A stretch of 64,000 bases of DNA from an uncultured Candidatus Rokubacteria bacterium (GCA_963754315.1 CAVWFS010000015.1:86207-150206), one strand, 5' to 3'; positions 1 through 24,163 are shown, counted from the stretch's first letter. Numbers and translations: made by a program. The notes: generated by a model from the letters alone, not told the origin.

Positions 1-980
1 AGGTGGGGGAGACCTTGGGCTCGTTGCGATAGGCCCGAGCGCGCTCACCATCGACCTCACCCTCGCCATACTGGCCGCGCACGGTGTCTCGCAAGACCTG
101 CTCGGGGCTCATGGGCCGGATGGACTTGAGGACCTTGACCTTCTCGTCGCGGACGGCGTCCGCCTCGAAGGAGGCGGGCGGCTCCATGGCCACCAGGGCG
201 AGGAGCTGGAACATATGATTCTGGATCATGTCCCGCAGCACACCCGCCGTGTCGTAGTAGTTCCCCCGATCCTCCGCCCCGACCGTCTCCGCCACCTTGA
301 TCTGGACGTGGTCGATGTATCGGCGGTTCCAGATGGGCTCGAAGAGGCCATTGGCGAAGCGAAAGACCATGATGTTCTGCACGGTCTCCTTGCCGAGGTA
401 ATGATCGATGCGATAGATCTGGTCCTCCCTCAACACACTTGCGATCTCGGAATTGAGGGCGCGTGCGGAGTCGAGGTCGCGCCCGAACGGCTTCTCGATG
501 ATCACCCGTCGCCACACGCCGGGATCTTCGCGCACCAGACCCGCGGCGCCGAGGTGGCGCACGACCTCGCCGAAGAAGCTCGGCGGCACTGCCAAGTAGA
601 AGAGAACGTTGCCGCCCGTGCCGTGGGTTCGTGCCACCTCGGTCAGCAAGGTGGCCAGCTGCCGGTACGTCTCGGGGTCGGTGAACTCGCCCGCCTGGTA
701 GTACAAGGCATCACGCAATTCCTTCCACAGCGCGTCGTCCACGCGCACGGTGGCGAAGTCACGGATATCCTGGGACTGTTCCTCGCGAAACTGCTCATGG
801 CTCTTTGGCTTGCGGGTGACCCCCACCACGGCCAGCTGATGAGGCAAGAGACCGTTGGCTTTGAGGTTGTAGAGAGCCGGCATCAATTTCCGCTTGGTGA
901 GGTCGCCGGCCGCGCCGAAGATGACGATCGTACAGGGGCGGGCCGGTCTGAGGAGCCCGGACATCGTGTTCTCGGTCATG
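1..980 (-). CDS. zwf: glucose-6-phosphate 1-dehydrogenase, N-terminal about 326 aa (3' end lies beyond window start)
   Basis: Reverse-strand translation from the ATG at 978-980 gives MTENTMSGLL...IVIFGAAGDLTKRKLMPALYNL (NADP-binding), EKPFGRDL and RIDHYLGKE signature motifs. It is absent from the ORF track only because it runs off the window edge. The overlapping 215..1252(+) and 57..515(-) track ORFs are antisense or out of frame. Confidence 0.9.
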
Positions 981-1200
981 GTGCTCGTCCTCCCTCCCGG
1001 AGCGTACCGGAAATCGATCTCAAGCGTCTGACCACCGGTGCATCGTGTCGGTTGCCTCGCATGCGGGCAGGACGGGGTGACAGGTACGCCAGACAGACAC
1101 GCCGCTCGGGTGATCGATGCACGGTGGGAGAACGGAAGGACACGCAGCCGACGACACGCGGGGGGGAGAATCCACGCGCCGCCGGCTGCGCCGGGGCGGG

Positions 1201-1353
1201 TTACTTCGCGGCGCTCTGGTTAGGGCGCCGTTGGCGGCCGCCCCCGAAGTAGTCGATATATCGATCGATCAGCCGGGGTTGATTCTCGAGAAGCAACGAC
1301 AGGTACAGTATGGAGTCGACGATGCGTCGCCGGGTGGCTATCTGGGTTGTCAT
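1201..1353 (-). CDS. unlisted 50-aa small ORF upstream of zwf (hypothetical)
   Basis: ATG at 1351-1353 preceded by GGGAGGGG 6 nt upstream; stop TAA at 1201-1203. Translation is MTTQIATRRRIVDSILYLSLLLENQPRLIDRYIDYFGGGRQRRPNQSAAK. No family recognised. Confidence 0.25.
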   Translation of the reverse strand: MTTQIATRRRIVDSILYLSLLLENQPRLIDRYIDYFGGGRQRRPNQSAAK

Positions 1354-2610: not shown

Positions 2611-2802
2611 CTACTGAGCTTGAAAGCCGACCTTGTTATGGGTGCCGTCGCAGAACGGCTTTGTCGTGGAGCTGCCACACCGACAGAGGGCAATCCGCGG
2701 ACGGGCGCTCGTATCGATCTTGTTGCCGGCGGGATCGAGGACCTCGACCTCGCCCTCGATCAGGTAAGGTCCGTTGGGGCGGCAGGCAATCTTGACGGTC
2801 AT
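2611..2802 (-). CDS. CDGSH iron-sulfur domain protein (mitoNEET-like), 63 aa
   Basis: MTVKIACRPNGPYLIEGEVEVLDPAGNKIDTSARPRIALCRCGSSTTKPFCDGTHNKVGF carries the CxC-x2-S-x3-P-x-CDG(S/T)H signature. RBS aagggggac lies 5 nt upstream of the ATG at 2802. Confidence 0.75.
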   Translation of the reverse strand: MTVKIACRPNGPYLIEGEVEVLDPAGNKIDTSARPRIALCRCGSSTTKPFCDGTHNKVGFQAQ

Positions 2803-2896
2803 CACGGTCCCCCTTTGTGCGCGGCTCAGCCGCGTCGGGCCTACACTACCACGGTGAGAACGTTGCGTTGCAGCGCACACGGCGTACACTCGGGCC

Positions 2897-4258
2897 ATGA
2901 ACGAGCCGGGCGCGATCCTGCTCATCGCCTGTTATGAGCTGGGTCACCAGCCCCTTGCCGTCGCCTGGCCTGTCGCCTTCCTGGAACGTGCGGGGTATAC
3001 GCCGGACGTGCTGGACCTCTCGGTCGAGCCGTTTGATGCCGAGAAGGTGCGGCGTGCACGACTGATCGCCCTCTCCGTACCCATGCACACGGCGCTCCGG
3101 CTGGGGGTGCACGTCGCCGAGCGCATCCGCGCCCTCAATCCCGGGTGTCATCTGGCCTTCTATGGTCTCTACGCGACTCTCAACGCCGACTACTTGCGCG
3201 AGCACGGCGTCGACTCGGTACTCTCCGGTGAGGTCGAACAGGCGCTCGTCGAGCTCGCGAATGCGCTCGAGGGCAATCACCGTCCCCTGCACTCGCCCGC
3301 ACCACGGCTCGAGAAGCTCAGCTTCCCTCCCCCGAGCCGTCGTCTGCTTCCGGATCTGAAGAGATACGCCCGCCTCGAGCACGGCGGGCGTCAGGAGCTT
3401 GCCGGGCACGTGGAAGCCAGCCGCGGCTGTCGGCATCTGTGCGCGCACTGTCCGATCCCGCCGATCTACGGTGGGCGCTTCTTCGTGGTCCCGCGCGCGG
3501 TCGTGCTCGCCGACGTGAGACAGCTCGTTGAGGCCGGGGCCGCCCACATCACCTTCGGCGACCCGGACTTCCTGAACGGCCCCAAGCATGCCTTTGCCGT
3601 GGCGCAGGAACTCCACGCCGAGTTTCCTCACCTGACGTTCGACGTGACCGCCAAGATCGAGCACTTGCTCCGGCACCGGCACCGGCTGCCCGAGCTTGCC
3701 ACTGCCGGTTGCCTGTTCATCGTGTCTGCGGTGGAGTCGCTCAGCGATGTCGTGCTCGGTCACCTCGCCAAGGGCCATTCGCGCGCCGACGTCCTCGAGG
3801 CCCTGCACGCGGTGCGCGGGTCCGGCATGACCTTGCGCCCGACCTGGGTCCCGTTCACACCGTGGACCACCCTCGACGACTACCGCGAGATGCTGGACTT
3901 CGTGGAGCGGGAGCATCTCATCGATGCCGTGGACCCGGTCCAGTACTCGATCCGGCTGCTGGTCCCTCCGGGCTCCCTGCTTGCGACCAGCCAGGCCATG
4001 CGCCCACACCTCGGGCAGCTCGTGGCCAAAGACTTCTACTACGAGTGGACGCATCCCGACCCGTCGATGGACACGCTCCAGCGGGCGGTCGCCTCCCTGG
4101 TAGAGGACGCCGCCGCGCGCGCAGAGGACCCGGCGGTCACGTTCGGGAGGATCCGCGACACGGCTGAGGCGGCCGCCGGATGCCCTCCGCGATCGGCCCC
4201 GATTCTGCCCGCCGGACGGCCACGCGCGCCCCGACTCAGCGAGCCCTGGTTCTGCTGA
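2897..4258 (+). CDS. class B radical SAM enzyme with N-terminal cobalamin (B12)-binding-like domain
   Basis: N-terminal Rossmann-like segment ILLIACYELGHQPLAVAWPVAFLERAGY... The CxxxCxxC cluster CRHLCAHC sits in ...HVEASRGCRHLCAHCPIPPIYGG, followed by a TIM-barrel-like region. 453 aa. Confidence 0.85.
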   Translation: MNEPGAILLIACYELGHQPLAVAWPVAFLERAGYTPDVLDLSVEPFDAEKVRRARLIALSVPMHTALRLGVHVAERIRALNPGCHLAFYGLYATLNADYLREHGVDSVLSGEVEQALVELANALEGNHRPLHSPAPRLEKLSFPPPSRRLLPDLKRYARLEHGGRQELAGHVEASRGCRHLCAHCPIPPIYGGRFFVVPRAVVLADVRQLVEAGAAHITFGDPDFLNGPKHAFAVAQELHAEFPHLTFDVTAKIEHLLRHRHRLPELATAGCLFIVSAVESLSDVVLGHLAKGHSRADVLEALHAVRGSGMTLRPTWVPFTPWTTLDDYREMLDFVEREHLIDAVDPVQYSIRLLVPPGSLLATSQAMRPHLGQLVAKDFYYEWTHPDPSMDTLQRAVASLVEDAAARAEDPAVTFGRIRDTAEAAAGCPPRSAPILPAGRPRAPRLSEPWFC

Positions 4259-4355
4259 GCGGAACCTACTCGGGGCCAGTTGGCCCTCACGGAAAAGTCG
4301 GCTACAGTAGGAGTTTGAGACGGTTGGTGACAGCATAGGTTCGAGAGGTGACACC

Positions 4356-4637
4356 ATGAGTGACGAGCTGAAGGCAAAGGTCCAAGAGCTCATCGATTCG
4401 ACCATCAATCCGGCTGTGGCCGGTCACGGCGGCTTCGTCGAGCTGATCGATATCCAGGATAGCCGCGTTTATCTTCAGCTAGGCGGGGGATGCCAGGGCT
4501 GCGGCATGTCGGACGTGACCCTGAAGGCCGGCATCGAGCGGCTCATCAAGGAGGAGATCCCGGAGGTCGCCGAGGTCGTGGACACCACCGACCACGCCTC
4601 CGGATCCAACCCCTACTACACGCCCGGCAAGGCCTGA
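4356..4637 (+). CDS. NifU-like (Nfu-type) Fe-S cluster carrier domain protein, 93 aa
   Basis: ...GGFVELIDIQDSRVYLQLGGGCQGCGMSDVTLKAGIERLI... has the CxxC motif of the NifU C-terminal domain. RBS gagagg lies upstream of the ATG. Confidence 0.8.
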   Translation: MSDELKAKVQELIDSTINPAVAGHGGFVELIDIQDSRVYLQLGGGCQGCGMSDVTLKAGIERLIKEEIPEVAEVVDTTDHASGSNPYYTPGKA

Positions 4638-4663
4638 GCGCCCGGCGCTCAGTCGAGGGGCAC

Positions 4664-5920
4664 GTGGATCGCCTGCTGCTCCTCTTACCAACCACGACGT
4701 ACCGGACCGAGGATTTCCTCGAAGCCGCCAGCCGCCTCGGGGTTGACCTCGTGTGCGCGTCAGAGAGCCCCAGCACCTTCGAAAGCCACGCGCCCGATAG
4801 GCTGTTGACCCTGGACTTGACGGATCCGGAGGGGGCGGCCAGCACGACCGCCCGCTTCGCCGAGCGTTACCCAATCCACGGGGTCGTGGGGGTGGACGAC
4901 AGCACCACGGTCGTGGCGGCTGCCATTGCCGCGCGGTTGGGTCTTCGGGCAAACTCCATCGGCTCCGCGGCCGCCGGCCGAAACAAGCGGCTCATGCGCG
5001 ATCGGCTGGCCGCCGCTGGCGTTCGTCAGCCAGCCTTTCGCCCGTTGCCTCTGGACGGCGATCCGCTTGCTCTGGCCCAGGAAGTCGACTATCCGTGCGT
5101 GCTCAAGCCTCTCGCGCTGTCCGCCAGCCGTGGGGTGATCCGCGCCGACGACATTGGCCAGTTTACCGATGCCATGCTTCGCATTCGGGCGATTCTGGGC
5201 CGCGACGACGTCGCGGTGAGTGAAGAGGCGAAGAAAACATTCCTGGTCGAGAGCTTCATCCCCGGCTGCGAGGTTGCCCTGGAAGGGTTGCTGGTCGAGG
5301 GCGACTTGCGCGTGCTGGCCATCTTCGACAAGCCCGATCCCCTCGACGGACCATTTTTCGAGGAGACCATCTACGTCACGCCGCCACGTCTTGCTTGTGA
5401 CGTCCAGAAGGCCATCGCCCACACGACGGCGGAGGCCTGCAAGGCCCTTGGGCTCACCAGCGGGCCCATTCACGCAGAGTTGCGCCTGAACGATGACGGG
5501 CCATGGGTGATCGAGGTTGCCGCGCGCTCCATCGGCGGGCTTTGCTCTCGTACCTTGCGGTTCGGGACGGGTATGAGCCTGGAGGAGCTGATCCTTCGCC
5601 AGGCCCTCGGCTGGCCCCTGATGTCAACCGAACGAGACGATCGGGCAGCCGGTGTCATGATGATTCCAATTCCGCGGGCCGGTCGGCTGGCCGGCGTGCA
5701 GGGAGTGGAGGCCGCCAAGGCCGTCCTGGGAATCGAGGACGTCGTGATCTCGGCTCACCTCGACCAGGAGCTGATCCCCTTGCCGGAGGGCTGGCAATAC
5801 CTCGGCTTCATCTTCGCGCGGGCCCAGACCCCGGCCGACGTGGAGGCGGCCCTGCGCGATGCCCACGCGCGGCTCCGCTTCGACATCGCCGAGCCGGCCA
5901 GGAGACCACTACCGTCATGA
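4664..5920 (+). CDS. ATP-grasp superfamily ligase (carboxylate-amine ligase type)
   Basis: Pre-ATP-grasp N-domain, then CVLKPLALSASRGVIRADD, FLVESFIPGCEVALEGLLVEGDLRVLAIFDKPD, and GPIHAELRLNDDGPWVIEVAARSIGG, typical of ATP-grasp B and C subdomains. Start is taken at GTG 4664 (MDRLLLLLPTTTYRTEDF...). The track ORF 4490..5920 carries a low-complexity N-terminal extension. Confidence 0.7.
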   Translation: MDRLLLLLPTTTYRTEDFLEAASRLGVDLVCASESPSTFESHAPDRLLTLDLTDPEGAASTTARFAERYPIHGVVGVDDSTTVVAAAIAARLGLRANSIGSAAAGRNKRLMRDRLAAAGVRQPAFRPLPLDGDPLALAQEVDYPCVLKPLALSASRGVIRADDIGQFTDAMLRIRAILGRDDVAVSEEAKKTFLVESFIPGCEVALEGLLVEGDLRVLAIFDKPDPLDGPFFEETIYVTPPRLACDVQKAIAHTTAEACKALGLTSGPIHAELRLNDDGPWVIEVAARSIGGLCSRTLRFGTGMSLEELILRQALGWPLMSTERDDRAAGVMMIPIPRAGRLAGVQGVEAAKAVLGIEDVVISAHLDQELIPLPEGWQYLGFIFARAQTPADVEAALRDAHARLRFDIAEPARRPLPS

Positions 5921-6678
5921 CCCTCACCGAGATCGCCCAGAGCCTTCAAAGCTCCCTTTCGCTCACCTGGTCACCGGTGGCGATAGCCCTCACCGATTCG
6001 GCTCCGGCTGGCGTCCCCGCCTTCAGCGGCAAGGTGGCCGCCGGCTGCCGCTTCTGGCAGGAAGCCGCCACCCGGACGTTCGTGACCGCGCCACGTGACC
6101 ATGACCTGTGCGCGATCGGGACTTTCACCCATAACCTCGAGGTGAGTGCCGCCCACGAGACCGACCGGCGGGACGCGCTTCACGTTTTCGCCGACCTCGG
6201 CTACGTGCGCCCGGAGGATATCCCCAACATTCCCGTACTCGCCCGGCGACCGGCCTTCGTGGTGTACGGACCCCTCGCCGATTCGCCGCTGCCACCCGAC
6301 GTCGTGCTGCTCTTCGTTCGTGCCGACCAGACGCTCATCCTGTCCGAAGCCTCACAGTCCCTGGAAGGCGGCCTCCCGCCGGCCATGGGCCGTCCGGCCT
6401 GCGCGATCATCCCTCAGGTCAAGAATACCGGCCGTGCGGCCCTGAGCCTGGGCTGCTGCGGAGCGCGGGCCTACCTCGACATCCTCACCGACGACGTGGC
6501 GCTCTACGCGATTCCCGGACCTAGCCTCGAGGCCTTTGCGCTACGGGTCACCGAGCTGGCCAAGGCCAACCAGACCCTGAGCATCTTCCATCGCATCCGG
6601 CGGAAGGACGTGGAGGGCGGGAAGACCCCCACGATCAAGGAATCACTGGCGGCCATGGCCACTGGCGGCGGAGGCTGA
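5917..6678 (+). CDS. DUF169 family protein (uncharacterised)
   Basis: MTLTEIAQSLQSSLSLTWSPVAIALTD... matches the DUF169/COG2043 architecture. Its ATG overlaps the TGA of the ATP-grasp gene (ATGA), indicating translational coupling. Confidence 0.7.
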   Translation: MTLTEIAQSLQSSLSLTWSPVAIALTDSAPAGVPAFSGKVAAGCRFWQEAATRTFVTAPRDHDLCAIGTFTHNLEVSAAHETDRRDALHVFADLGYVRPEDIPNIPVLARRPAFVVYGPLADSPLPPDVVLLFVRADQTLILSEASQSLEGGLPPAMGRPACAIIPQVKNTGRAALSLGCCGARAYLDILTDDVALYAIPGPSLEAFALRVTELAKANQTLSIFHRIRRKDVEGGKTPTIKESLAAMATGGGG

Positions 6679-6725
6679 GCGCGAGGGCGCCCCGTCCTGG
6701 CCCACCGCCCCAAGGAGGTTCGACG

Positions 6726-8504
6726 ATGCCGTCGACGAAATTCGCGAATCTCGTGGAGATGTTCGAGCGCTCCGCCAGCACGTTTGCGTCCCATCCGCTG
6801 TTCGGGCTCAAGCGGGGCGGCCAGTGGTCGTGGATCACGTACCAGGACGTCGCCCGGCAAGTCGACGCGTTCCGGGGCGGCCTGGCCGGGCTCGGGGTAA
6901 AGCGTGGCGACCGCGTCGCCATCGTCTCCAACAATCGGCCGGAATGGGCGATCAGCGCCTATGCGTGCTTCGGCCTCGGGGCCTCGCTGGTGCCCATGTA
7001 TGAGGCGCAGCTACCCACGGAGTGGGGCTACATCTGCGCGGACTGTAGCCCGGTGGCCATCATCGCCGCCACCGGTGAGATCTTCGACAAGTGCCTGGCG
7101 TTGCCCAAGAGCGTGTCCGCCATGAAGCACGTCCTCGGACTCGCGCTGCCCTCGGATCATCCGAGCTCGTTCGAGGGCGTGCTGGCCGCCGGCACACGGA
7201 ACCCCACGCCGGCCATACGTCCCGAGCCCACGGACACCGCGTGCCTCATATACACGTCGGGCACCACCGGCTACCCCAAGGGTGTCATCCTTTCGCACAG
7301 CAACATCGCGTCGAACATCAGCGCCGTGCACGAGATGATGCCCATGGGCGGCCAGGACAGAAGCCTCTCCTTCCTTCCCTGGGCCCACTCCTTCGGACAG
7401 ACGTGCGAGCTGCACGCGCTCCTCTCGCTGGGTGCATCCATGGCGCTGTGCGAGGACGTGACCAAGCTGGTCGAGCAGCTGCCCGAGGTGAGGCCGACCC
7501 TGCTCGTGAGCGTCCCGCGCGTCTTCAACCGCATCTACGACGGCGTGCACCAGCAGATGGCCAGCAAACCCAAGGCCATCCAGAAGCTCTTCCACAATGG
7601 CCTGCGCGCGGCCAGCAAGCGACGCCAGGGCGCTGTCCTCGGCACCGGGGAGAGGCTCGTCCTCGCGCTGGCTGACCGCCTCGTGTTCTCGAAGATCCGG
7701 GCTCGGTTCGGGGGACGTATGAAGTACGCCTTCAGCGGAGGGGCCGCCCTCGCGCGCGAAGTGGCGGAGTTCATCGACAGCCTCGGGATCACCGTATACG
7801 AAGGGTACGGTCTCACCGAGACCAGTCCCATCGCCACCGGTAACCGGCCCGGTGTTCATCGCATCGGCAGCGTGGGCAAGCCGATCCCGGGAGTGCGGAT
7901 CGAGCTCGATCAGAGCGCCTCGACCGAGGGTGGTGAGGGCGAGATCGTCGTGTACGGCCCCAACGTGATGCAGGGTTATCACAATCAGGAAGCGGAGAAC
8001 CGCGCCGTCTTCACGTCCGACCGAGGCTTCCGCACCGGGGACCTCGGGCGCTTCGACGGGGACGGCTTCCTCTACATCACCGGGCGCATCAAGGAGCAGT
8101 ACAAGCTCCAGAACGGCAAGTACGTGGCGCCGGCCCCCCTCGAGGAGCAGCTCAAGCTATCGCCCTACATTCTGAACGCCCTCCTGTTCGGCGATAACCG
8201 GCCACACAACGTCGCGCTCATCGTGCCGGACATGGCTTCCCTCAAGCAGTGGAGCACCCGGCACGGGATCGTGACAACCAGTGACGAGGAGCTGCTCGCT
8301 CATCCGCGAGCGCTCGCCCTGATCCAGGAGGAAGTCGACCGGTACGCGGCTGGCTGGAGAGGGTTCGAACGGGTCCACAAGGTGACCCTCATCGCCGAGG
8401 ATTTCACCACGCAGAACGGTTACCTCACCCCCACCCTCAAGTTGAAGCGGCGGGTGGCGCTGCAGACTTACGGGCCCCGCATCGAAGCCCTGTACCGGGA
8501 GTAG
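6726..8504 (+). CDS. long-chain fatty-acid--CoA ligase (AMP-forming, FadD15-like)
   Basis: 592 aa with AMP-binding motif LIYTSGTTGYPKGVILSH, and YGLTETSP, GDLGRFDGDGFLYITGRIKE. RBS caaggagg lies upstream of the ATG at 6726. Confidence 0.85.
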   Translation: MPSTKFANLVEMFERSASTFASHPLFGLKRGGQWSWITYQDVARQVDAFRGGLAGLGVKRGDRVAIVSNNRPEWAISAYACFGLGASLVPMYEAQLPTEWGYICADCSPVAIIAATGEIFDKCLALPKSVSAMKHVLGLALPSDHPSSFEGVLAAGTRNPTPAIRPEPTDTACLIYTSGTTGYPKGVILSHSNIASNISAVHEMMPMGGQDRSLSFLPWAHSFGQTCELHALLSLGASMALCEDVTKLVEQLPEVRPTLLVSVPRVFNRIYDGVHQQMASKPKAIQKLFHNGLRAASKRRQGAVLGTGERLVLALADRLVFSKIRARFGGRMKYAFSGGAALAREVAEFIDSLGITVYEGYGLTETSPIATGNRPGVHRIGSVGKPIPGVRIELDQSASTEGGEGEIVVYGPNVMQGYHNQEAENRAVFTSDRGFRTGDLGRFDGDGFLYITGRIKEQYKLQNGKYVAPAPLEEQLKLSPYILNALLFGDNRPHNVALIVPDMASLKQWSTRHGIVTTSDEELLAHPRALALIQEEVDRYAAGWRGFERVHKVTLIAEDFTTQNGYLTPTLKLKRRVALQTYGPRIEALYRE

Positions 8505-8513: not shown

Positions 8514-9432
8514 TCAGTCGGGGTCGGGGTCCGGGTTCGCAGTACCGATGCTAGCCGTTTCCCGCCCCATCCGTCGGAGCCAGGCTTCGACCACGGCGAC
8601 GAAGCGCGTGGGCGCTTCCAGCTGGGGGACGTGGCCGACGTCATCGAAAATCTCGAACGCCCAGTCAGGGCGCTTTCGAGCCAGCGCCTGGGAAGCGGCC
8701 AACGGCACGAGCCGGTCTTTGGTGCCCTGGATCAGCAGGGTGGGGGCAACGATCGTGCTGACCATCGCGTCGTACAGTCGGCGGCGGCGCAATATGCCCA
8801 GCAGGGAGCGCGCAGCCTCCAGAAACGTCCGATTCGCCGCTGGCATTGTCGTGAGCCGGTCGGCGGTGAGCGCGACGTGCGCTCGGCGTACATCGTCCGG
8901 AACACGGGATGGATCGACACAGAGCAGGCGGAGCACCTCGCGAACGAGGCCCTCGGGACCCAGCCGTTCCCCGCGCCGGCGGAGATACCACTCGCCGACC
9001 CATGGGATCGAGTAGATGGCGAAGGCCTGCAAGATCTCGCGGTCGACCCGCGTCCCGGCCGGGAGGGGCTGCGCCGGCGCCACCAGTACGAGCCCGGCCA
9101 CGTTCTCGGGGTGGAGGGCGGCCTCCATCATCGCGATAAGCCCTCCCATGGAATTGCCGACAAGGATGACGGGCTGGCCAACCGCAGCGAGAAATCGATG
9201 CAAGGCATTCCCGATTGGCGGCAACGCGGGCCGAGCGCCCTGCCGGTGGCGTTCGGCCGAATCCTGGGAGATCCGGAGCGATGACCTGTGCCCGCTCCGC
9301 TAGCCTTGGCGCCACGGCCAGCCAGTTCGCATGCGAGCCGCCGAGTCCGTGGACGAGGACCAGACGGGAACCGGAGCCGCCGAAGTCCGCACAGTGCACG
9401 GGTCCGCCTGCGTCGACCGTTCGCATGTGCAT
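8514..9432 (-). CDS. alpha/beta hydrolase, interrupted by a single-base frameshift near 9205
   Basis: The N-terminal part is in the frame of track ORF 8665..9492 (MHMRTVDAGG...LVLVHGLGGSHANW...APDLPGFGRTPPAGRSARVAAN). The C-terminal part is in the frame of 8514..9224 (IGNALHRFLAAVGQPVILVGNSMGGLIAM..., the GxSxG nucleophile elbow). Confidence 0.6.
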
Positions 9433-9549
9433 CGAAGACCGCCCCTCCTGGTCCTCCCGGGATCGTACATCACGGTTTGCCGCGACCGTCACGTCTGAGA
9501 CAATGCGCCCAGACCTCCGGGTCGGCTATGACACAAAGGGGTGCGCCGA

Positions 9550-10532
9550 TGACCACGCACGTGATCGAACCACGGATGGAGCTGGAGCAGAACCTCCACC
9601 TGTACCGCCAGATGGCGAAGATTCGCGCCTTCGAGGAGCAGGTCCACGAGCTGTACAAGAGCGCCAAGATGCCGGGCCTGGCCCATCTGTACGTGGGCGA
9701 GGAAGGGGTGGCGGTGGGCGTGTGCGAAGCCCTGCGTCGCGACGACCTCATCACGAGCACTCATCGTGGGCACGGCCACTGCCTGGCCAAGGGAGCCTCC
9801 GTCAACCGGATGTTCGCCGAGCTGCTCGGCAAGGAGGCGGGCTACTGCCGCGGCAAGGGCGGTTCCATGCACATCGCCGATCCTGACACGGGGAACCTCG
9901 GGGCGAACGCCATCGTGGGCGGCTCGGCCGGCATCGCGACCGGCGCGGCCCTGTCAGCCAAGATGCGACGCACCGACCAGGTTGCGGTGTGCTTCTTCGG
10001 CGACGGGGCCCTCGGCCAGGGTCTCCTCTATGAAGCGATGAACATGGCAGCCCTCTGGAAGCTGCCGGTCATCTACGTCTGCGAGAATAACCTCTACGGC
10101 GAGTACACGCCGTGTGGCGAGACCGTGGCCGGCGAGATCCTCGCCCGCGCCCGGGCCTTCGGTATCCACGCCGAGATGGTCGACGGCCAGGACGTCCAGC
10201 TCGTGCAGGCGACGATGCGGCGGCTGGTGGAGCGCGCGCGCCGGGGAGAGGGGCCGGCCTTCCTCGAGTGCAAGACCTACCGCTACTACGGGCATCACGT
10301 GGGCGACGTCAACCGCGAGTATCGCTCGCGGGAAGAAGAGCATGAGTGGATGAGCAAACACGATCCGCTCGAGACCCTGGCCGGGCGACTCACGGCCGAC
10401 GGCCTGGCCGACACGAGCGTCTTCGAGCGCATCCAGGCCGACGTGAAGGCGGAGATCGACACCGGCGTGCAATTCGCGCTGGCGGCGGCGTACCCGGCGG
10501 CCACTCAAGTCGACGAGGACGTCTATGCGTGA
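9550..10532 (+). CDS. TPP-dependent 2-oxoacid dehydrogenase E1 component, alpha subunit (PdhA/AcoA-like), orphan
   Basis: MTTHVIEPRMELEQNLHLYRQMAKIRAFEE..., with LITSTHRGHGHCLAKG and FFGDGALGQGLLYEAMNMAALWKLPVIYVCENNLYG (TPP-binding). No beta subunit follows. ATG 9550 has aaagggg upstream. The track ORF 9288.. is a spurious N-terminal extension. Confidence 0.8.
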
Positions 10533-12013
10533 GGGGTTGGCCGCGGAGGCGTGACCGGTCGCCGTGGCGCCAGCGGCAGCGCGCGCAGACCGTTCAGATC
10601 GATCGGGGGCATCTCCAGGCTCAGACTCTGGAGCACAGCGTTGGCGAGCTCGTTGTAGCGATTGAAGGAGCGGCGGAGCCGACCGCGCCAGGCAGGAATT
10701 CCACCGTTGGCGTGAAGCTCGAACGCCGACTCCCGGCCGTCCAGGGCAGAGGCGACGTGATCGGCGGCCATCTGAAGCAAGGCCGAGCGCTGCAGAGCCG
10801 TGTAGCCGCCGCCCCTGAACGACTCCTCCAGCTCCGCTCCCACCTCGGGTGAGGCCAGGTCCTTGTCGGACGGGGCCACCATGAGCGACGATCCCGGAAG
10901 AATGCGCAGGATCTCGGTGATACGCTGCCGCGCCTTCTGCATGGCGATGCTGCCCGCCGCCACGTGGCCGCGCCCGGGAATGCAGTAGCCCTCGGCCGTG
11001 AGTTCCGGATCGAGCTCGGCGGCCGTTTGACAGCTTCGGACGGTTTGCACGTCCACGATCAGATCAACCAGGTACTCGATGGTCGGCTCATGCTCCGTGA
11101 GCCCCATGGCGTGCGTGCAGGCCAGGGCGAGCCCCAGCGTGAACTCCGCCTTCGAGAGCCAGCAGTAGAGCTGGTGCCAGAACAGCCAGGAAGCCATGGC
11201 TTCCGGCGATGGATCGAGGAGAAAGACACGCTCCCAGGGGACGAAGACATCATCGAGCCACATCTGGCCGTCGAGCTCGTCATAGCGGCTGCTCAAGGGG
11301 GCGAGGAACGGGTTCGCGTGGCGGGCCGAGATCTTCCGGCACACGATCGTGACGCCGGGAGCATTGACGGCAACGATGAAGGTCGCCCGATGCCCGTCGC
11401 GATCAATGCCCGAGTGCCCCCCCACGTACACGTCCTCGGCGTAGGCGGGGCTGGTGTGCATGCCAATCTTCCCCCGGACGATGACCCCGGCATCGGTCTC
11501 GCGGACGAGCTGAAGCGCGGCGCGGGCGTCAGGATCGTCGCGCAGGCGATAACCGATGGTGGCGGCCCCCGCCGAAAACGTCAGGAATCGTCCCGTGCGG
11601 ACAATCAGATCCCGGTACGCGGCGGCGTGGGTAATCTGCTCCCGGGAGACGTTGCGTTGCTGAACGGCGTCGAGAATGCCGAGCGCGATGAGATTTCCGT
11701 AGGCCGGAGTGTGGGTGATGTTGCCAGCGCTCAGAAAGGTCGTCGCCGAGAAACACTGACCCATTCCGCGCAGGTGATCGGAGCTCGTGGGGAGAGTGAA
11801 GGCCCAGGGCGTACGGCTCCCCTGGGGATCGGCGGGCCCCAGGACGGTGTCGCGCCACGCCGGGTCGAAGTGACGGTCATACCAGGCCACGTATTCGTCC
11901 ACCATGGCGCGCGTGGCGGGATGCACGGTGACGTCATCGATCAAGCCTTCACCCATGATCCACACCCGGCGACCATCGCGCAGCGCCTCTCGGTACTCGG
12001 CTCCCGTCCTCAT
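10523..12013 (-). CDS. 4-hydroxyphenylacetate 3-monooxygenase oxygenase-component family (HpaB-like) flavin-dependent monooxygenase
   Basis: 496 aa. MRTGAEYREALRDGRRVWIMGEG...VHPA is the characteristic HpaB N-terminus, and the length and composition match across the whole protein. Confidence 0.8.
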   Translation of the reverse strand: MRTGAEYREALRDGRRVWIMGEGLIDDVTVHPATRAMVDEYVAWYDRHFDPAWRDTVLGPADPQGSRTPWAFTLPTSSDHLRGMGQCFSATTFLSAGNITHTPAYGNLIALGILDAVQQRNVSREQITHAAAYRDLIVRTGRFLTFSAGAATIGYRLRDDPDARAALQLVRETDAGVIVRGKIGMHTSPAYAEDVYVGGHSGIDRDGHRATFIVAVNAPGVTIVCRKISARHANPFLAPLSSRYDELDGQMWLDDVFVPWERVFLLDPSPEAMASWLFWHQLYCWLSKAEFTLGLALACTHAMGLTEHEPTIEYLVDLIVDVQTVRSCQTAAELDPELTAEGYCIPGRGHVAAGSIAMQKARQRITEILRILPGSSLMVAPSDKDLASPEVGAELEESFRGGGYTALQRSALLQMAADHVASALDGRESAFELHANGGIPAWRGRLRRSFNRYNELANAVLQSLSLEMPPIDLNGLRALPLAPRRPVTPPRPTPHA

Positions 12014-13769
12014 GGCCGCGTGATCACGTCGACGAGGGCGGGGAGGCCCTCGTCCTTCACGACGCGCAGGGCGCGCCGCAGGGCTGGCCCCACGGCGTCA
12101 GGCGTCTCGATGGGGCCCTCCGCGTAAACACCGAATCCCTGGGCGATGCGCGCAAAGTCGGGGGCCGGGTTGTCGATGCGAATCCCCACGACCTTGTTCT
12201 CTACCGGGCGACCCCGGGTCTTGGCGACCGCGTCCTGATGCTCCTCGTCGTTGCCGTACGAGCGATTGTTGAACATCACCGTGAGCAGGGGCAGCCGGTG
12301 GTGAGACGCCGTGTAGAATCCGCTCACCACGTAGAGAAGGTCGCCATCCGCCTGCAAATTCACACAGAGTTTTCCGCTGCCTCGATGGGCGAGCGCCACT
12401 CCCAGCGCGGCCGGAAGGCCGTAGCCAAGTCCAGCTCCGCCGCTCCCGCCATAGCTACGCTCGGGCTGCCAGTCCCAGAGCCGCCGCGCCCAGCCCTTGC
12501 CAGTCCCGTTGGCGAGGATCCAATCCTCGTTCTGGATAACCTTCCACACTTCGGCGGCGAGGACGGATGGGGCAATGGGTCGCGCCGAGCGCTCGAGGTC
12601 GAGCGTGGTGTCCCATTCACGACGGAGCGCTGCATGGCGGGCCGCCACCCGCGCGGCGCGCGTCTGGCGCTCGGAGGCCCGAGGGTCGTTGGTGAGACGG
12701 TCGTCGACCGCCGCCAGCAGGGCGGGCAGCGCCAGCCCGGCGTCGGCAGCGATGGGAAGATCGACCGGGGCCAGCGACTGGTACGTCTGCGCCCAGCTCC
12801 GCAGCGCGTAGTCGTCGAGGGAAATTGAAATGACGTGCGCGCCCTCGTTCAGCAGTCGCACCTCGCGGGTGCTGCGATCGGTCTCGGCCAGCGCGCTGAG
12901 AAAGCTCGATACGTCGAGGGCCAGAACCACGTCGGCCTCGGCCACGACCTCACGGCGAGCATCGGTCATGTCGAGCGGATGGCGAGAGGAGACACTCGGC
13001 CGCCCCTGGGACTCACCGGCGAGATCGATGAGGGGTGCGGCGAGCCGCTCGGCAAGACGACCGAGGGCGGCACACGCATGAGGTCGACGCCCGAGCGACT
13101 CGACGAGAATGATGGGAAAACGCGCCTCGACAAGCCGCCGCGCCGCCTCGTCGAGCGCGCGCGGATCGGCGTGTGGTGGTGTGGACGGCCCGAAGCGCGT
13201 CACATCGGGCACAGAGACCGGACCGTCGAGAGCTTGCTCCTGGAGCGCAGCATCGAGGCAGAGGTACACCGGGCCTTGAGGTTCGCTCTGGGCCACCCGC
13301 CAGGCTCGCAGAAAGGTTTCGGGAATGGCACCGATGCTGGCTGGCTGGTCGTCCAGCTTGACGTAGTCGCGCACCTGGGTGCCCTGCACGAGGGCCGTAT
13401 GGATCCAGTCGATCCACGGCCGGCGGCGGGTCGAATCCATGGGGCCCGTGGCCCCCAGTACCAAGATCGGCGCCCGGTCGCAGAACGCGTTGAAGATCGC
13501 CATGCTGGCGTGCTGAAGGCCGACGATGTCGTGCACCACGGCCGCCATCGGCCTCCCTTTGGCCTTGGCATAGCCGTGGGCGAGGCCGACCGCGATCTCT
13601 TCGTGAGTGGTGAGGATCAGCTCGGGCTGTTGGGGTCCACGGTAGTTCACCAGCGAGTCGTGAAGGCCACGAAAGGTCGCGCCCGGATTGATCGCGACAT
13701 GCTCGACCCCCACCGCGCGCAGCAGGTCAACGACCAGGTCGGAGCCATAGCGAGCCGTCGGCGCCACGG
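12010..13769 (-). CDS. thiamine-pyrophosphate-dependent enzyme (acetolactate synthase / benzoylformate decarboxylase superfamily)
   Basis: ...GSDLVVDLLRAVGVEHVAINPGATFRGL (N-terminal TPP domain) ... GSGGAGLGYGLPAALGVALA ... VNLQADGDLLYVVSGFYTASHH...VMFNNRSYGN (GDG-x24-NN TPP-binding motif). Start is taken at GTG 13767-13769. The track ORF start at 13983 looks like an extension. Confidence 0.75.
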
Positions 13770-13829
13770 AAAGGCACCGTATGTCGGTCCCCGCAAGGTT
13801 GTCAAGCGCGCGCGAGCCATGGCGGCTCC

Positions 13830-13859
13830 TTGACACCGTCTCGCCCCTGACCTTAGAAA
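13830..13859 (+). promoter_or_regulatory. candidate sigma70-like promoter (TTGACA-N17-TAGAAA) for the cupin gene
   Basis: ttgacaccgtctcgcccctgaccttagaaat lies about 50 nt upstream of the first ATG of the cupin ORF, in a divergent intergenic region. Confidence 0.35.
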
Positions 13860-13908
13860 TGCGGCGTAATGGCCCTGTGATGCTGGTCCTCGAGGAAAGG
13901 CGGCGCGC

Positions 13909-14553
13909 GTGGCCTACTTCATGAGACTGCTCGAGGACAGGCTGACGGTCGGGGCTTTGTCGAGGCCGCTGCCACCCCTGCACCGTGTTCTGTTCGTGAT
14001 CGAAGGCGAGTCACGTGTGTCCGCCCAGAAGGTTGAGCGGTCGGTGGCCGCTGGCCACGCCTGGTACGGACACGAGCCCTGCGCGCTCGGGCCAGGTGAC
14101 GCGAACGCGCGCGTGCTACGTTTCGAGCTGTACCGGGATCGGCCCCCCGCGCTCGACGGCGGCATGCTGAAGCTCGCCCACTCGATCGACCTCGATCCGA
14201 AGGCAGCCTGGCTGATGCGCTGCGATCGGGTGGACTTCGAGCCGGCGGGCGAAGCTCCCTTGCATCGTCACCGCGGCGGCGGCATCCGCTGCCTCCTGCG
14301 TGGCGCGATCGAGGTCACCGTGGGCGACGAGCCGGCCCGCCGGATTCTCCCCGGAGGGGCCTGGTTCGAAAGTGGGCGCGAGCCCGTCTACGCGGCGGCG
14401 GCGCTTGACGAGGAGACGAGCTTCATCCGGGTGACCGTCCAGCCGGCGGAGATCCGCGGACGGAGCTCCATCATGTACGTGAACCCCGCCGACGCAACCC
14501 GAAAACCTCGCTCGTACCACGTCTTCGTCGACGAGCCCATCCGGCTGCGCTAG
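13909..14553 (+). CDS. cupin domain protein
   Basis: ...GEAPLHRHRGGGIRCLLRGAIEVTVGDEPARRILPGGAWFESGREPV resembles a double-stranded beta-helix (cupin) core. Start is 13909 or 13921. Confidence 0.55.
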   Translation: MAYFMRLLEDRLTVGALSRPLPPLHRVLFVIEGESRVSAQKVERSVAAGHAWYGHEPCALGPGDANARVLRFELYRDRPPALDGGMLKLAHSIDLDPKAAWLMRCDRVDFEPAGEAPLHRHRGGGIRCLLRGAIEVTVGDEPARRILPGGAWFESGREPVYAAAALDEETSFIRVTVQPAEIRGRSSIMYVNPADATRKPRSYHVFVDEPIRLR

Positions 14554-14662
14554 GATGTAGGCCCCGACATGATCCTCAACCTTCTGCGGCCGAACCGCTC
14601 CCGGGAACCAGGGGGCAGTTCTCGACGTTCCCAGCATGGTGGATCCTGAGAGACGATAGCCG

Positions 14663-15751
14663 ATGAGCATGTCCGCGCCCACGGTGGGAATCATCGGGCT
14701 CGGCTTCGGCCGCGCCCACATCCCTGCCTTCCAGGCCCAGGGCTGTCACGTGGTTGCCCTTTGCCAGCGCGATCAGGCGAGCGCCAAAATCCTGGCTGAC
14801 CGCTATCGCATTCCGCGCGTCTTCGACCGCTGGGAGGAGATGCTGGAGGCGGCTCGACCCGAGATCGTCGTCATTGCCGCCCCGCCGCATCTGCACCACC
14901 CCATCGCGTTGCGCGCGTTTGCCCAGGGCGCCCACGTGCTGTGTGAGAAACCACTGGCCATGAACCGGACCGAGGGCGAGGCGATGCTCAGCGCGGCCGA
15001 GCGCAGCCGCCGCACCGCCATGACCAGTTTCAACTGGCGCTTCGTGGCCGCCATGCAAGAACTTCACGCCCGCGTGAATGAGGGCGCCCTCGGTCGGGTG
15101 TTCCACGTGAACGGCCGGTGGATGGGTGGGCGCTGGGCAAAGGCGACGGACGCAGCGACCTGGCGCATGGACCGAGCCCAGGCCGGCCACGGCTCGATGG
15201 GTGACATGGGAGTGCATCTGGTCGACTTCGTGCGCTGGACCTTCGGTGACTTCGTCCGCGTAGCGGCACGGGCAGGCGTGGCGTTTCCGGAGCGTTCGGC
15301 GCCTGGTGTGGAGCGTCCCGCCGACGCCGAGGACTACTGCGCCATCGTCGGAGAGCTCACCTCGGGCGCCACGGTCGCGCTCAGCACGAGCCGGGCCGCG
15401 CGGGGGCTCAACGAGCACTCGCTGGATGCTTTCGGGAGCGGCGGTGGCCTCGCGTATCGCTTCGTCCGTGACGGCAGCCGCTGGTGGGACGGAGAGCTGC
15501 GCGCCACGGCCGACGGAGATGTCCTCAAGCTCGTGAGCCCGCGTGTCACGTCGGATGGGGCGGGCGAAGGCGACCAGATGGAAATCGTCGGCAAGGCCAC
15601 CATCGGCCCCCTCGTCGGCCGCTTTCTGGACGCCATCAAGACTGGCACGTCTGCCGAGCCCTCCTTTCTCGACGGTGTTCGGGCCCAGGCCGTCCTCGAC
15701 GCTGTGCTGGCCGCCACCGTGCGAGGGGACTGGGTGCCGGTAACACGATGA
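14663..15751 (+). CDS. Gfo/Idh/MocA family NAD(P)-dependent oxidoreductase
   Basis: VGIIGLGFGRAHIPAF (Rossmann GxGxxG) and VLCEKPLAMNRTEGEAM (the EKP motif). Confidence 0.85.
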   Translation: MSMSAPTVGIIGLGFGRAHIPAFQAQGCHVVALCQRDQASAKILADRYRIPRVFDRWEEMLEAARPEIVVIAAPPHLHHPIALRAFAQGAHVLCEKPLAMNRTEGEAMLSAAERSRRTAMTSFNWRFVAAMQELHARVNEGALGRVFHVNGRWMGGRWAKATDAATWRMDRAQAGHGSMGDMGVHLVDFVRWTFGDFVRVAARAGVAFPERSAPGVERPADAEDYCAIVGELTSGATVALSTSRAARGLNEHSLDAFGSGGGLAYRFVRDGSRWWDGELRATADGDVLKLVSPRVTSDGAGEGDQMEIVGKATIGPLVGRFLDAIKTGTSAEPSFLDGVRAQAVLDAVLAATVRGDWVPVTR

Positions 15752-15863
15752 AGGGACGGGTCACGCACCTATGTTGCCGCGCCCGCCACCACCCGGATTT
15801 GATAGCGTCGTCCACGCGACGTTCCCGTGAAGTCAACCGTCCACCACAGAAAGGAGTCACTCA

Positions 15864-16296
15864 GATGATTCGACGCATGCTCACCCTCACCGCCGCGGGT
15901 GCTTTCCTCATGTCGGTCGCGGCGCCCGTCCTGGCCCAGCAGCCCGCGGCAGCACCGCCCAAGGCCGATGCCCCCAAGGCTGACATGGCCAAGCCGGACG
16001 CCAGCAAGGCCACGGCGAAGCCCGCCAAGGCGGCCACAAAGACGGCGACCGGTCAGCTCAAGAAGGTCAGCGATACCGAGATGGTCGTCATCGTCACCCC
16101 GAAGGGCAAGAACGCCGAAGACGTCACCTTCATCGTCGAGAAGGAAACGAAGATCATGAAGGGCGGCAAGGTCGTCGCGGTCAAGGATGTGATGGAGGCC
16201 GAGACGGTCACCGTGACCTACGCCGAGGCCGACGGCAAGAAGACCGCCAAGTCGGTCACGAGCAAGGGCGCCCCTGCCCCAGCCGCCAAGAAGTAG
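15864..16296 (+). CDS. secreted Ala/Lys/Pro-rich protein with signal peptide (hypothetical)
   Basis: ATG 15864 with aaaggag RBS. MIRRMLTLTAAGAFLMSVAAPVLAQQ is the signal peptide; the C-terminal beta-rich domain is TEMVVIVTPKGKNAEDVTFIVEKETKIMKGGKVVAVKDV. The track ORF start at 15484 is an extension. Confidence 0.6.
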
Positions 16297-16309
16297 CCAC
16301 ACGTCAGGA

Positions 16310-21022: not shown

Positions 21023-21023
21023 G

Positions 21024-21467: not shown

Positions 21468-21478
21468 CACCGAGCCTG

Positions 21479-22456: not shown

Positions 22457-22606
22457 CGTCGGTCTCCTTCCCTACTCCCGACGTCTCTGACGTCAGGCGC
22501 CGCCTTCATGGGTCGCGCGAGACTAGCAGCGGGGCGCGCAGAGCGTCAAGGCCGACAGCATACGCCTGTTCCGTTGACGAGCCTGGCGCGCGGTGGACCG
22601 CTCTGC

Positions 22607-24099: not shown

Positions 24100-24163
24100 C
24101 ACGGCTGACGGCTGCCGGCCCCGCCGCGCCCTCGGCGTAGCGGTTCTCCGAGGTGGCGCGGTC

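Follow-up and report, generated by a model that had tools for sequence, protein, structure and literature searches.

A recoded UGA codon completes a radical SAM selenoprotein encoded in a recurrent gene module with a predicted L-amino acid ligase, an Nfu-type Fe-S carrier and a DUF169 protein

The window analyzed here, a 64 kb stretch of DNA from an uncultured Candidatus Rokubacteria bacterium, contains at positions 2611-8504 a cassette of six genes (Table 1), and the initial annotation had named all of them, with domains that Pfam profile searches confirmed. The CDGSH gene starts at the ATG codon 2800-2802, which is preceded by the ribosome-binding site AAGGGGG; a longer ORF reaching position 2925 was rejected, as it would run into the start of the radical SAM (rSAM) gene on the opposite strand. 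The ATP-grasp gene starts at the GTG codon 4664, and a database protein of the same 418 amino acids is 100% identical to its product. No terminator-like sites were found within 2897-8504. The overlap (ATGA) of the ATP-grasp and DUF169 genes at 5917-5920 is real, and the earlier description of the cassette as translationally coupled fits this single junction, because only these two genes overlap, whereas the other junctions are gaps of 26-47 nt. The gap between the DUF169 and FadD genes is 47 nt, and not 48 nt as first counted.

Alignment of the divergent intergenic regions from 13 Rokubacteria-type loci revealed a hexamer, TACACT, kept 6-11 nt before the start codon and changed to TAGACT, TACAAT or TAAACT in three of these loci; an upstream sequence, ATACCAC, is also kept in most of them. 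The hexamer is a candidate -10 box, possibly serving a short-leader or leaderless transcript.

Table 1. Genes and sequence elements of the cassette, with positions counted from the first nucleotide of the window
Feature	Position	Strand	Evidence and remarks
CDGSH-type [2Fe-2S] protein, 63 aa	2611..2802	-	zf-CDGSH 70.6 bits (Pfam); divergent from rSAM; lineage-specific accessory
Conserved TACACT hexamer	2885..2890	+	6 nt 5' of the rSAM start codon
CUAEP-tail radical SAM selenoprotein, 473 aa	2897..4318	+	NF040546, 649 bits; read-through translation
In-frame selenocysteine UGA (U454)	4256..4258	+	TGA/Cys codon column in homologues
Bacterial SECIS hairpin, GGGGCC-AGUU-GGCCCU	4272..4287	+	Starts 16 nt after the U of UGA
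Nfu-type Fe-S cluster carrier, single-domain, 93 aa, CQGC motif	4356..4637	+	NifU 88.8 bits (Pfam)
ATP-grasp protein, L-amino acid ligase (LAL) type, 418 aa	4664..5920	+	ATP-grasp_4 + ATPgrasp_N + LAL_C2 (Pfam)
DUF169 protein, 253 aa	5917..6678	+	DUF169 (Pfam); start overlaps the ATP-grasp stop (ATGA)
FadD-type AMP-forming acyl-CoA ligase	6726..8504	+	AMP-binding 269 bits (Pfam); same-strand neighbour

The rSAM gene had been read as an ordinary ORF ending at 4258, so that a recoded TGA and its SECIS element were missed. The TGA at this place is a selenocysteine (Sec) codon, within the context ...SEPWFC-TGA-AEPT..., and in the read-through translation the ORF continues as ...WFC-U-AEPTRGQLALTEKSATVGV up to the stop codon at 4316-4318. 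Among 74 homologous loci, the position of U454 is occupied by TGA in 50 and by a Cys codon (TGC or TGT) in 24, and the peptide following it, AEPTxGQ and then L or F, is conserved in both the Sec-type and the Cys-type loci. A hairpin with a stem of 5-9 bp and the loop (A)GUU(N) was found at +15..+35 after the UGA in 48 of the 50 Sec-type loci and is missing from most Cys-type loci, the mean hairpin energy being -9.7 kcal/mol in the former versus -2.7 kcal/mol in the latter (p = 2e-9). Six of the seven base pairs of the stem demonstrate compensatory changes, and none of 500 shuffles reached the observed score. Rfam has no model for this hairpin, which is the sole SECIS-like site in the window; no tRNA genes were detected in the same 64 kb. 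The codon column and the covariation together establish a SECIS hairpin that is predicted to direct Sec insertion at the UGA, yielding a Cys-Sec pair near the C-terminus. Methylomirabilota MAGs are reported to be rich in selenoproteins (PMC13188914). All close database homologues that we inspected terminate at ...WFC, and the copy of the cultured bacterium Thermomicrobium roseum DSM 5159 carries the same kind of annotation. Gene callers cut the rSAM at the UGA, and therefore the functionally telling Cys-Sec tail is hidden in most database records.

The rSAM protein scores 649.4 bits (cutoff 500) with the NCBIfam model NF040546, 'CUAEP/CCAEP-tail radical SAM (seleno)protein', the match spanning model positions 1-457 of 468 with the truncated 453-aa protein as a query. 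It consists of an N-terminal Rossmann (B12-binding-like) domain, a radical SAM domain (Pfam Radical_SAM, 44.4 bits) with the CxxxCxxC motif C178/C182/C185, which is invariant in 76 sequences, and the C-terminal tail WFC453-U454-AEP. The only conserved Cys or Sec residues outside the SAM motif are C12, C272, C453 and U454. The AF2 model (pLDDT 93) has a class-B-like fold. Both the identity of this protein as a Sec-containing member of NF040546, a curated family with no assigned function, and the recoding are nearly certain, and no feature sets it apart from other members of the family. NF040546 is represented in at least 567 of 185,579 species-representative genomes, its hosts including Rokubacteria, Nitrospira, Planctomycetota, Acidobacteria, Chloroflexota and sponge-associated Poribacteria. 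A single sentence is devoted to it by Haft and Gwadz, who describe both its structure and its function as poorly known (10.1101/2022.07.06.499078). It is not mentioned in a 2026 selenoproteome review, and the literature searched contains no mention of its conserved gene partners.

To describe these partners, we considered 39 well-flanked rSAM loci and counted the genes located within 5 kb. The ATP-grasp gene accompanies rSAM at 20 of the 39 loci, Nfu at 18 (across phyla) and DUF169 at eight. The ATP-grasp proteins encoded beside rSAM are 50-71% identical. Homologues of the three partners lie at most 5 kb from rSAM in Rokubacteria, Acidobacteria, Nitrospirota, Planctomycetota and some Chloroflexota, and the complete set of four is present, arranged in varying order, at loci L029, L036, L061, L116, L136 and L161. 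Since the gene set recurs in several phyla in differing orders, this co-localization is beyond chance, and the association proposed in the initial annotation, which would have been undermined had the homologues never been found side by side elsewhere, extends well outside this genome. In a reverse scan starting from the ATP-grasp gene, rSAM is present at 10 of 20 well-flanked loci, and the ATP-grasp gene keeps Nfu or YggX as a neighbour even at loci without an adjacent rSAM. The DUF169 proteins, which are often paired with a small ferredoxin, have four Cys conserved family-wide (C44, C65, C162 and C180). Thus, rSAM, an ATP-grasp protein of the predicted LAL type, Nfu and the four-Cys DUF169 protein form a conserved module in several phyla.

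Other neighbours differ between lineages. The Fe-S and iron helpers near the module vary from Nfu to YggX (Chloroflexota and Bryobacteraceae), CDGSH, ferredoxin and an Rrf2 regulator (locus L085), and an ATG22-like MFS transporter of the amino-acid-effluxer type adjoins the module in Blastocatellia. The two flanking genes named in the initial annotation are both present here, but CDGSH is found beside rSAM only in Rokubacteria-type loci (five of six well-flanked ones, plus L083 and L084), whereas FadD is found at none of the 39 loci and follows DUF169 only in L084, an 85%-identical relative; FadD is therefore probably outside the conserved module.

The ATP-grasp protein matches the LAL BL00235 (3vot), the solved structure nearest to it, over its full length (residues 19-401, E = 1.4e-41). 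The three domains listed in Table 1 are also those of the LALs BL00235, BacD (YwfE), DdaF and RizA, among which BL00235 aligns with our protein from end to end and BacD partly. On the other hand, none of the curated LAL equivalog models reaches its cutoff with the protein; it belongs to a subfamily of its own, 50-70% identical across phyla and encoded beside rSAM, Nfu or YggX genes. We predict from its domain content and its match to BL00235 that it is a LAL-type ligase. BL00235 makes Met-Gly and Met-Met (PMC6920838), and thus the N-terminal residue that it accepts is a 2-amino-4-substituted butanoate.

The closest characterized relative of rSAM is ArsL (NF040542), a radical SAM enzyme of arsinothricin biosynthesis, which has the same two-domain architecture and is approximately 31-36% identical over the full length (36% for the RCCLKC-tail proteins). 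ArsL cleaves SAM to a 3-amino-3-carboxypropyl (ACP) radical, and its reaction has been reconstituted with SAM, dithionite and arsenite; the arsenite, which the radical attacks, is held on a C-terminal Cys-rich tail, RCCLKC, all three cysteines of which are required. The CC of this tail aligns with the Cys-Sec pair C453-U454, and 62 of the 94 family-invariant residues are shared. At the same time, RCCLKC forms the extreme C-terminus of ArsL, whereas WFC-U-AEP is followed in rSAM by about 15 more residues, and C12, H17, H64, H184 and H294, which are invariant in the rSAM family, are replaced by N, F, F, Y and T, respectively, in the RCCLKC-tail (ArsL-family) protein of B. cereus. Likewise, the partners of ArsL are ArsM and ArsQ, and not LAL, Nfu and DUF169.

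By analogy with ArsL, we tentatively propose that rSAM performs a similar chemistry on its Cys-Sec tail and that the resulting amino acid is then ligated, a reading that we favour while holding it to be somewhat short of probable. The [4Fe-4S]-SAM site of rSAM would most likely produce a radical, either ACP or 5'-deoxyadenosyl, that would attack a soft small molecule, or else a chalcogen or metalloid, gripped by the Cys-Sec tail; in the N-terminal domain, C12, H17 and H64, which are specific to the family, may help to form this site. An amino acid of the 2-amino-4-substituted-butanoate type would result, to be coupled by the ATP-grasp ligase to a second amino acid or an amine, or else the ligase could build a dipeptide first, with rSAM modifying it afterwards. 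The hosts are mostly aerobic, and loading or repair of the oxygen-sensitive cluster would fall to Nfu (to YggX in Chloroflexota and to CDGSH in Rokubacteria), with DUF169, often together with the small ferredoxin, as a putative redox or electron-supply partner. In its favour are the relationship to ArsL, the LAL-type ligase and the residue accepted by BL00235, the co-localization seen in both directions, the recurrent Fe-S and iron helpers, and the ATG22-like transporter of Blastocatellia. Several observations count against this chemistry. The score of rSAM with the whole ArsL model NF040542 (319.3 bits) is below the cutoff of 450; its tail offers two chalcogen residues in place of the three arsenite-binding cysteines; no ars, methyltransferase or resistance genes were found conserved near the rSAM homologues; 13 of the 39 well-flanked loci have no partner gene within 5 kb, and no ATP-grasp orthologue was found on the T. 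roseum megaplasmid that carries rSAM; finally, the wide, housekeeping-like distribution is a poor fit to a toxin or antibiotic pathway.

The best surviving alternative, although an unlikely one, places the module in iron-sulfur or iron-stress physiology rather than in the synthesis of a secreted metabolite. In one variant, C12, H17, H64 and the Cys-Sec tail would form an auxiliary or sacrificial metal site of the MiaB/LipA type that is rebuilt by Nfu; in the other, the gene set would build or repair a metallocofactor, or else a low-molecular-weight thiol or selenol with a protective role, under an Rrf2-type sensor. The recruitment of different Fe-S and iron helpers by different lineages is in agreement with this alternative, as is the persistence of Nfu or YggX beside the ATP-grasp gene in loci lacking an adjacent rSAM. 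Moreover, MiaB, which carries an auxiliary cluster in its N-terminal domain, is among the fold matches of the AF2 model, and C12 directly follows strand beta-1, like the first ligand in MiaB. However, the four conserved Cys and Sec residues outside the SAM motif are too few for a standard auxiliary [4Fe-4S] cluster, cluster assembly is not known to involve a LAL-type ligase, and the helpers may simply keep any rSAM enzyme working in aerobes.

The initial annotation had assumed a cobalamin-dependent methylation or rearrangement, a view that hangs on a Pfam B12-binding match barely exceeding the threshold (34.3 bits, cutoff 32.1), whereas ArsL makes an ACP radical instead. A true class-B enzyme would act on a small molecule or lipid, methylating or rearranging it at an unactivated carbon or heteroatom and using Cys-Sec as a redox or H-atom-donor pair. 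Apart from the Pfam match, the structural comparison is consistent with such an activity: Foldseek matched the AF2 model to OxsB, TsrM, AprD4 and TokK (E values 1e-18 to 1e-11), the closest folds being OxsB and TsrM, both of them cobalamin enzymes (E ~1e-18), and the invariant H17 after strand beta-1 is, by positional reasoning, roughly in the canonical place of the B12 His ligand. All four proteins combine an N-terminal Rossmann-like domain with a radical SAM barrel, as rSAM does, but they are only 13-18% identical to it in sequence and none has a selenocysteine tail. The same fold is also seen in AprD4 (TM 0.70), which is not known to bind cobalamin, and ArsL is active in vitro without added cobalamin. 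In addition, rSAM scores just 20-44 bits with every NCBIfam class-B methylase model, and no cobalamin genes were found conserved in the rSAM neighbourhoods. We therefore consider a class-B function quite unlikely.

An ArsL-type metalloid pathway proper, in which the tail binds As(III), Sb(III), Hg(II) or Se/Te and an organometalloid amino acid is made for detoxification or antibiosis, appears very unlikely. The homology to ArsL and the alignment of the tail with the arsenite-binding CC agree with it, as does the recurrence of CU motifs in heavy-metal-handling proteins, e.g. HgcA and MerT (Haft and Gwadz, 10.1101/2022.07.06.499078). But the B. cereus ArsL is encoded in an ars island (ArsR, ACR3, ArsC, ArsD, ArsA and GNAT), whereas neither arsM, arsQ, arsN nor any other ars, mer or methyltransferase gene was found in the window cassette, and no ars, mer or methyltransferase families rank among the conserved neighbour clusters of 81 CUAEP loci; the requirement of ArsL for all three tail cysteines is also at odds with the two chalcogen positions of rSAM. 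Least of all do we expect a RiPP or protein-modifying system, with a ribosomal peptide or a residue in a protein as the target, in spite of the rSAM and ATP-grasp pairs that exist in some RiPP clusters and of the analogy with Dph2-type diphthamide synthesis (in which a protein receives an ACP radical and is then amidated in an ATP-dependent step), since ORF clustering and gap inspection revealed no conserved precursor-peptide or other small ORF beside the rSAM homologues, as the initial annotation had seen for this locus (the sole suspicious long gap, in Acidobacteria, encodes an N-terminal Nfu domain), the ATP-grasp protein has the LAL architecture including LAL_C2 and is not of the graspetide type, and the conserved neighbours include neither a protease nor a leader-recognition domain nor an exporter.

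The same ligase and Fe-S helper genes adjoin rSAM in many phyla, and so an undescribed pathway is likely; that it is a widespread one producing a new non-proteinogenic amino acid, converted to a dipeptide by a dedicated L-amino acid ligase, is a more specific proposal that we regard as doubtful. The chemistry of ArsL, the only characterized relative of the family, broke the canonical radical SAM rule, and the ArsL-like reading, if true, would provide the second case of an ACP radical in a canonical radical SAM enzyme. To our knowledge, no selenocysteine-containing member of the radical SAM superfamily has a defined chemistry so far, and this one would then be the first. The conserved partnership of rSAM with the predicted LAL and with Fe-S helpers offers a concrete and testable lead to its function, and the existence of Cys-type orthologues and of cultured hosts (T. 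roseum and Thermogemmatispora carboxidivorans PM5) makes such experiments feasible.

The gene content of the cassette was taken from the ORF list and Pfam domains, and all six genes named in the initial annotation were recovered in the window (G+C content about 67%). The radical SAM gene (rSAM) matched both domains attributed to it earlier, although the B12-binding match is only at threshold level. Read from the sequence, the ATP-grasp and DUF169 genes indeed overlap as ATGA at 5917-5920, and FadD follows DUF169 in the same order at a distance of 47 nt, not 48 nt as first given. No terminator-like sites were found inside the cassette. The most plausible start of the CDGSH gene is at 2802, where an ATG has a ribosome-binding site; a longer ORF reaching 2925 would collide with rSAM.

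Features of the window, with strand and the domains or evidence on which each rests
Feature	Position	Strand	Domains or evidence
CDGSH gene	2611-2802	-	zf-CDGSH (Pfam); 63 aa
rSAM	2897-4318	+	Radical_SAM and threshold-level B12-binding domain (Pfam)
SECIS hairpin GGGGCC-AGUU-GGCCCU	4272-4287	+	comparison between loci
Nfu	4356-4637	+	NifU
ATP-grasp	4664-5920	+	ATPgrasp_N, ATP-grasp_4, LAL_C2
DUF169	5917-6678	+	DUF169
FadD / AMP-binding ligase	6726-8504	+	AMP-binding
E1 dehydrogenase	9288-10532	+	
HpaB-like hydroxylase	10523-12013	-	
TPP enzyme	12010-13983	-	
GFO/IDH/MocA oxidoreductase	within 9288-29044		
Molybdenum hydroxylase large subunit	17191-19503	-	
TctA and TctB	within 9288-29044		
Second AMP-binding ligase	27362-29044	+	

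The initial annotation ended rSAM at 4258. Translation past this apparent stop gives ...SEPWFC-TGA-AEPTRGQLALTEKSATVGV-stop, and therefore the TGA at 4256-4258 is read as a selenocysteine (Sec) codon and the gene continues to 4318. The product scores 649 bits (cutoff 500) against NF040546, the NCBIfam model of CUAEP/CCAEP-tail radical SAM (seleno)proteins. We collected 80 homologous loci from species-representative genomes, in 74 of which the tail was readable; the codon for residue 454 is TGA in 50 and TGC or TGT in 24, and the motif PRLTEPWFC[U/C]AEPTxGQ[L/F] is conserved on either side of it. Sec-type genes predominate in Rokubacteria, Planctomycetota, Poribacteria, and Blastocatellia, members from Nitrospirota are Cys-type, and Chloroflexota have both. 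The window itself comes from a Rokubacteria/Methylomirabilota-like organism. All seven close database homologues with sequence inspected stop at ...WFC, and most others listed have 452-455 aa, which agrees with a cut at the TGA. Gene callers thus cut members of the family short, and the cultured Thermomicrobium roseum DSM 5159 is a case in point. Its megaplasmid (NC_011961.1, locus L081) carries a Sec-type member at 8953-10389 and beyond with the tail ...WFC-TGA-AEPLEDPSG..., annotated as stopping at the TGA (WP_012643191.1); its neighbours encode a PLP aminotransferase, an MFS transporter, and a large GNAT protein.

No SECIS family of Rfam was matched, either in the whole window at gathering thresholds or in 4200-4400 at E <= 10, and a single-sequence fold of the region after the UGA (z = 0.09) is uninformative in such GC-rich DNA; the case for a SECIS element therefore rests on comparison between loci. 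A stem of 5-9 bp with an (A)GUU(N) loop lies 15-35 nt past the UGA in 48 of the 50 Sec-type loci. The mean hairpin energy is -9.7 kcal/mol in Sec-type versus -2.7 kcal/mol in Cys-type loci (Mann-Whitney p = 2e-9), the latter being a control under equal protein constraint. When 35 Sec-type sequences are aligned without gaps, compensatory changes occur in six of seven stem pairs, with 44 double-change cells observed versus 16 expected; none of 500 shuffles reached the observed covariation score, and slid controls collapse. For the predicted element this comparison is decisive. A heuristic scan of the 64 kb found a Cys-adjacent in-frame TGA with a SECIS-like hairpin only in rSAM, and a tRNA scan of the same window found no tRNA-Sec. 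Further Sec sites, suspected from in-frame stops within tblastn matches to DUF169 (L029, L033) or ATP-grasp (L009, L010, L014, L016), were rejected. The TGA at about 2750 in the L029 DUF169 gene falls in a non-Cys column (Asp, Glu, or Gln in homologues) and probably stems from a pseudogene or from faulty sequencing, and the remaining stops lie at or past the true stop of the gene.

These data show that rSAM is a selenoprotein gene of the NF040546 family with a working-type SECIS element. Both the family and its recoding are curated already, so the window gene is one ordinary representative of this known, uncharacterised family. Haft and Gwadz give the family a single sentence, calling its structure and function not well known (10.1101/2022.07.06.499078); a selenoproteome review of 2026 does not include it, and the literature searched contained no paper on its function or partners.

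The window proteins served as tblastn queries against the 80 loci, all neighbouring ORFs were clustered de novo, and neighbours within 5 kb of rSAM were counted in the 39 loci flanked by 4 kb or more on each side. ATP-grasp is present in 20 (50-71% identity across phyla), Nfu in 18, DUF169 in eight, and CDGSH in five, all from Rokubacteria; 13 have none of these partners. The order is CDGSH / rSAM-Nfu-ATPgrasp in Rokubacteria, ATPgrasp-rSAM-Nfu-MFS (ATG22-like) in Blastocatellia, rSAM-DUF169-ATPgrasp in Nitrospirota and Planctomycetota, and formyltransferase / YggX-rSAM, sometimes with a convergent ATP-grasp gene, in Chloroflexota. Six loci (L029, L036, L061, L116, L136, and L161) hold rSAM, Nfu, ATP-grasp, and DUF169 together in shuffled orders. 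A reverse scan of metagenome contigs with a diverse ATP-grasp alignment gave 20 well-flanked loci, with rSAM in 10, Nfu in 10, DUF169 in five, and YggX in three; ATP-grasp adjoins Nfu or YggX even where rSAM is not adjacent. The co-localisation of rSAM with ATP-grasp and DUF169, named as a test in the initial annotation, is thus seen in multiple phyla and in both scan directions, and these results establish an association of rSAM with a ligase of the L-amino acid ligase (LAL) type, Nfu, and DUF169.

FadD, named earlier as flanking the cassette, was rejected as a pathway member, being found in none of the 39 loci. The full window order including FadD is kept only in a relative at 85% identity (L084), and its presence therefore reflects recent shared ancestry only. 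The same relative shares the abhydrolase, E1 dehydrogenase, HpaB fragment, TPP enzyme, and Mo enzyme. Genes in 9288-29044 are of catabolic or transport type, and none is conserved with rSAM elsewhere. The alpha/beta-hydrolase gene at 8514-9492 (minus strand) is split across two overlapping frames (ORF 8665-9492, Abhydrolase_1 profile positions 3-47; ORF 8514-9224, positions 60-245) by a frameshift, pseudogenization, or an assembly error; its L084 orthologue is likewise called short (193 aa). A 345-aa ORF at 215-1252 (plus strand) was discarded as a shadow ORF, since the minus strand at about 1-982 encodes the N-terminal part of a glucose-6-phosphate dehydrogenase (motifs IVIFGAAGDLTKRK and RIDHYLGKE) that leaves the window at its left end.

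Upstream of rSAM, in the divergent intergenic region 2803-2896, no Shine-Dalgarno sequence was found. A TACACT-like hexamer (2885-2890) is kept 6-11 nt before the rSAM start in the loci compared (L001-L010, L016, L083, and L084), most of which also keep an upstream ATACCAC. Candidate roles are an operator or the -10 box of an mRNA with a short leader or none.

The alignment of the ATP-grasp protein with the solved LAL BL00235 (3vot, E = 1.4e-41) runs the full length, and that with BacD is partial; the products of BL00235 are Met-Gly and Met-Met (PMC6920838). Nfu has the usual CxxC motif. DUF169 recurs as a pair with a small ferredoxin of the 2x[4Fe-4S] type (L085 7498-9658, L086 8001-9105, L087 7127-8231), also without rSAM. 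In the Bryobacteraceae contig (L085), ATPgrasp-rSAM is divergent from Rrf2-DUF169-ferredoxin-YggX, whereas the pair in the remaining two has only an ArsR-type regulator next to it.

An AF2 model of rSAM residues 1-453 (pLDDT 93, pTM 0.90) has a predicted class-B architecture, a Rossmann domain followed by the radical SAM barrel, with OxsB, TsrM, and AprD4 (TM 0.70), then MiaB, as the closest folds. In the model C12 and H17 follow strand beta-1 and H64 follows beta-3 of the Rossmann domain, an edge that we take to hold cobalamin in class-B enzymes and an auxiliary cluster in MiaB. This placement would suit either of two rival readings, a true cobalamin methylase or a role in Fe-S or iron-stress physiology that involves an auxiliary site. 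The former has the threshold-level B12-binding match in its favour; the latter agrees with the Nfu and YggX neighbours, and set against it is the recurrent LAL-type ligase.

By sequence, the nearest characterised homologue is ArsL, the radical SAM enzyme of arsinothricin biosynthesis, and the homology spans the full length. A sequence search of the PDB found no structure of ArsL or of the NF040546 family. RCCLKC-tail proteins of the ArsL type from Bacillus plasmids are 36% identical to rSAM; that of B. cereus shares 62 of 94 residues invariant in the CUAEP family, and its CC aligns with C453-U454. The family-invariant C12, H17, H64, H184, and H294 are replaced in it by N, F, F, Y, and T. The B. 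cereus gene (L082, pAH820_272; noted regions 1438-2661 and 5995-7269) lies inside an arsenic island whose other genes encode a MIP channel, a GTP-binding protein, GNAT, ArsR, ACR3, and ArsC/D/A. An ATP-grasp gene stands beside an ArsR about 3.3 kb upstream; at 25% identity its product is too distant from the window ligase to support a shared ArsL-LAL partnership.

SAM cleavage by ArsL yields MTA and a 3-amino-3-carboxypropyl radical; the enzyme binds arsenite by its C-terminal cysteines and was reconstituted with no cobalamin added (10.1101/2024.02.01.577332, 10.64898/2026.04.29.721666). A metalloid pathway proper would fit such arsenite binding; however, ars genes are not conserved near family loci. 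A RiPP or protein-modifying system finds no precursor-peptide ORF, as already noted initially: the sole suspect, an apparent 400-nt gap after rSAM in Acidobacteria, encodes the conserved extra N-terminal domain (about 105 aa) of a two-domain Nfu of about 200 aa (L012, L014, L015, L020, L028, L034, L035, L037, L040, and L062).

An ArsL-like reading has points against it: rSAM scores 319 bits with the ArsL model, below the NCBIfam cutoff of 450, its tail is unlike that of ArsL, neither ars genes nor a methyltransferase or resistance gene are conserved near family loci, a third of the loci have no partner within 5 kb, and no close orthologue of the ligase was found on the T. roseum megaplasmid. 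By analogy with ArsL, we infer a radical pathway in which the Cys-Sec tail, perhaps with C12, H17, and H64, would hold a soft substrate for a SAM-derived radical. The product would be an amino acid, then coupled to a second residue by the LAL-type ligase, and the Fe-S helper proteins may sustain an oxygen-sensitive enzyme in hosts that are aerobic or act as its source of electrons.
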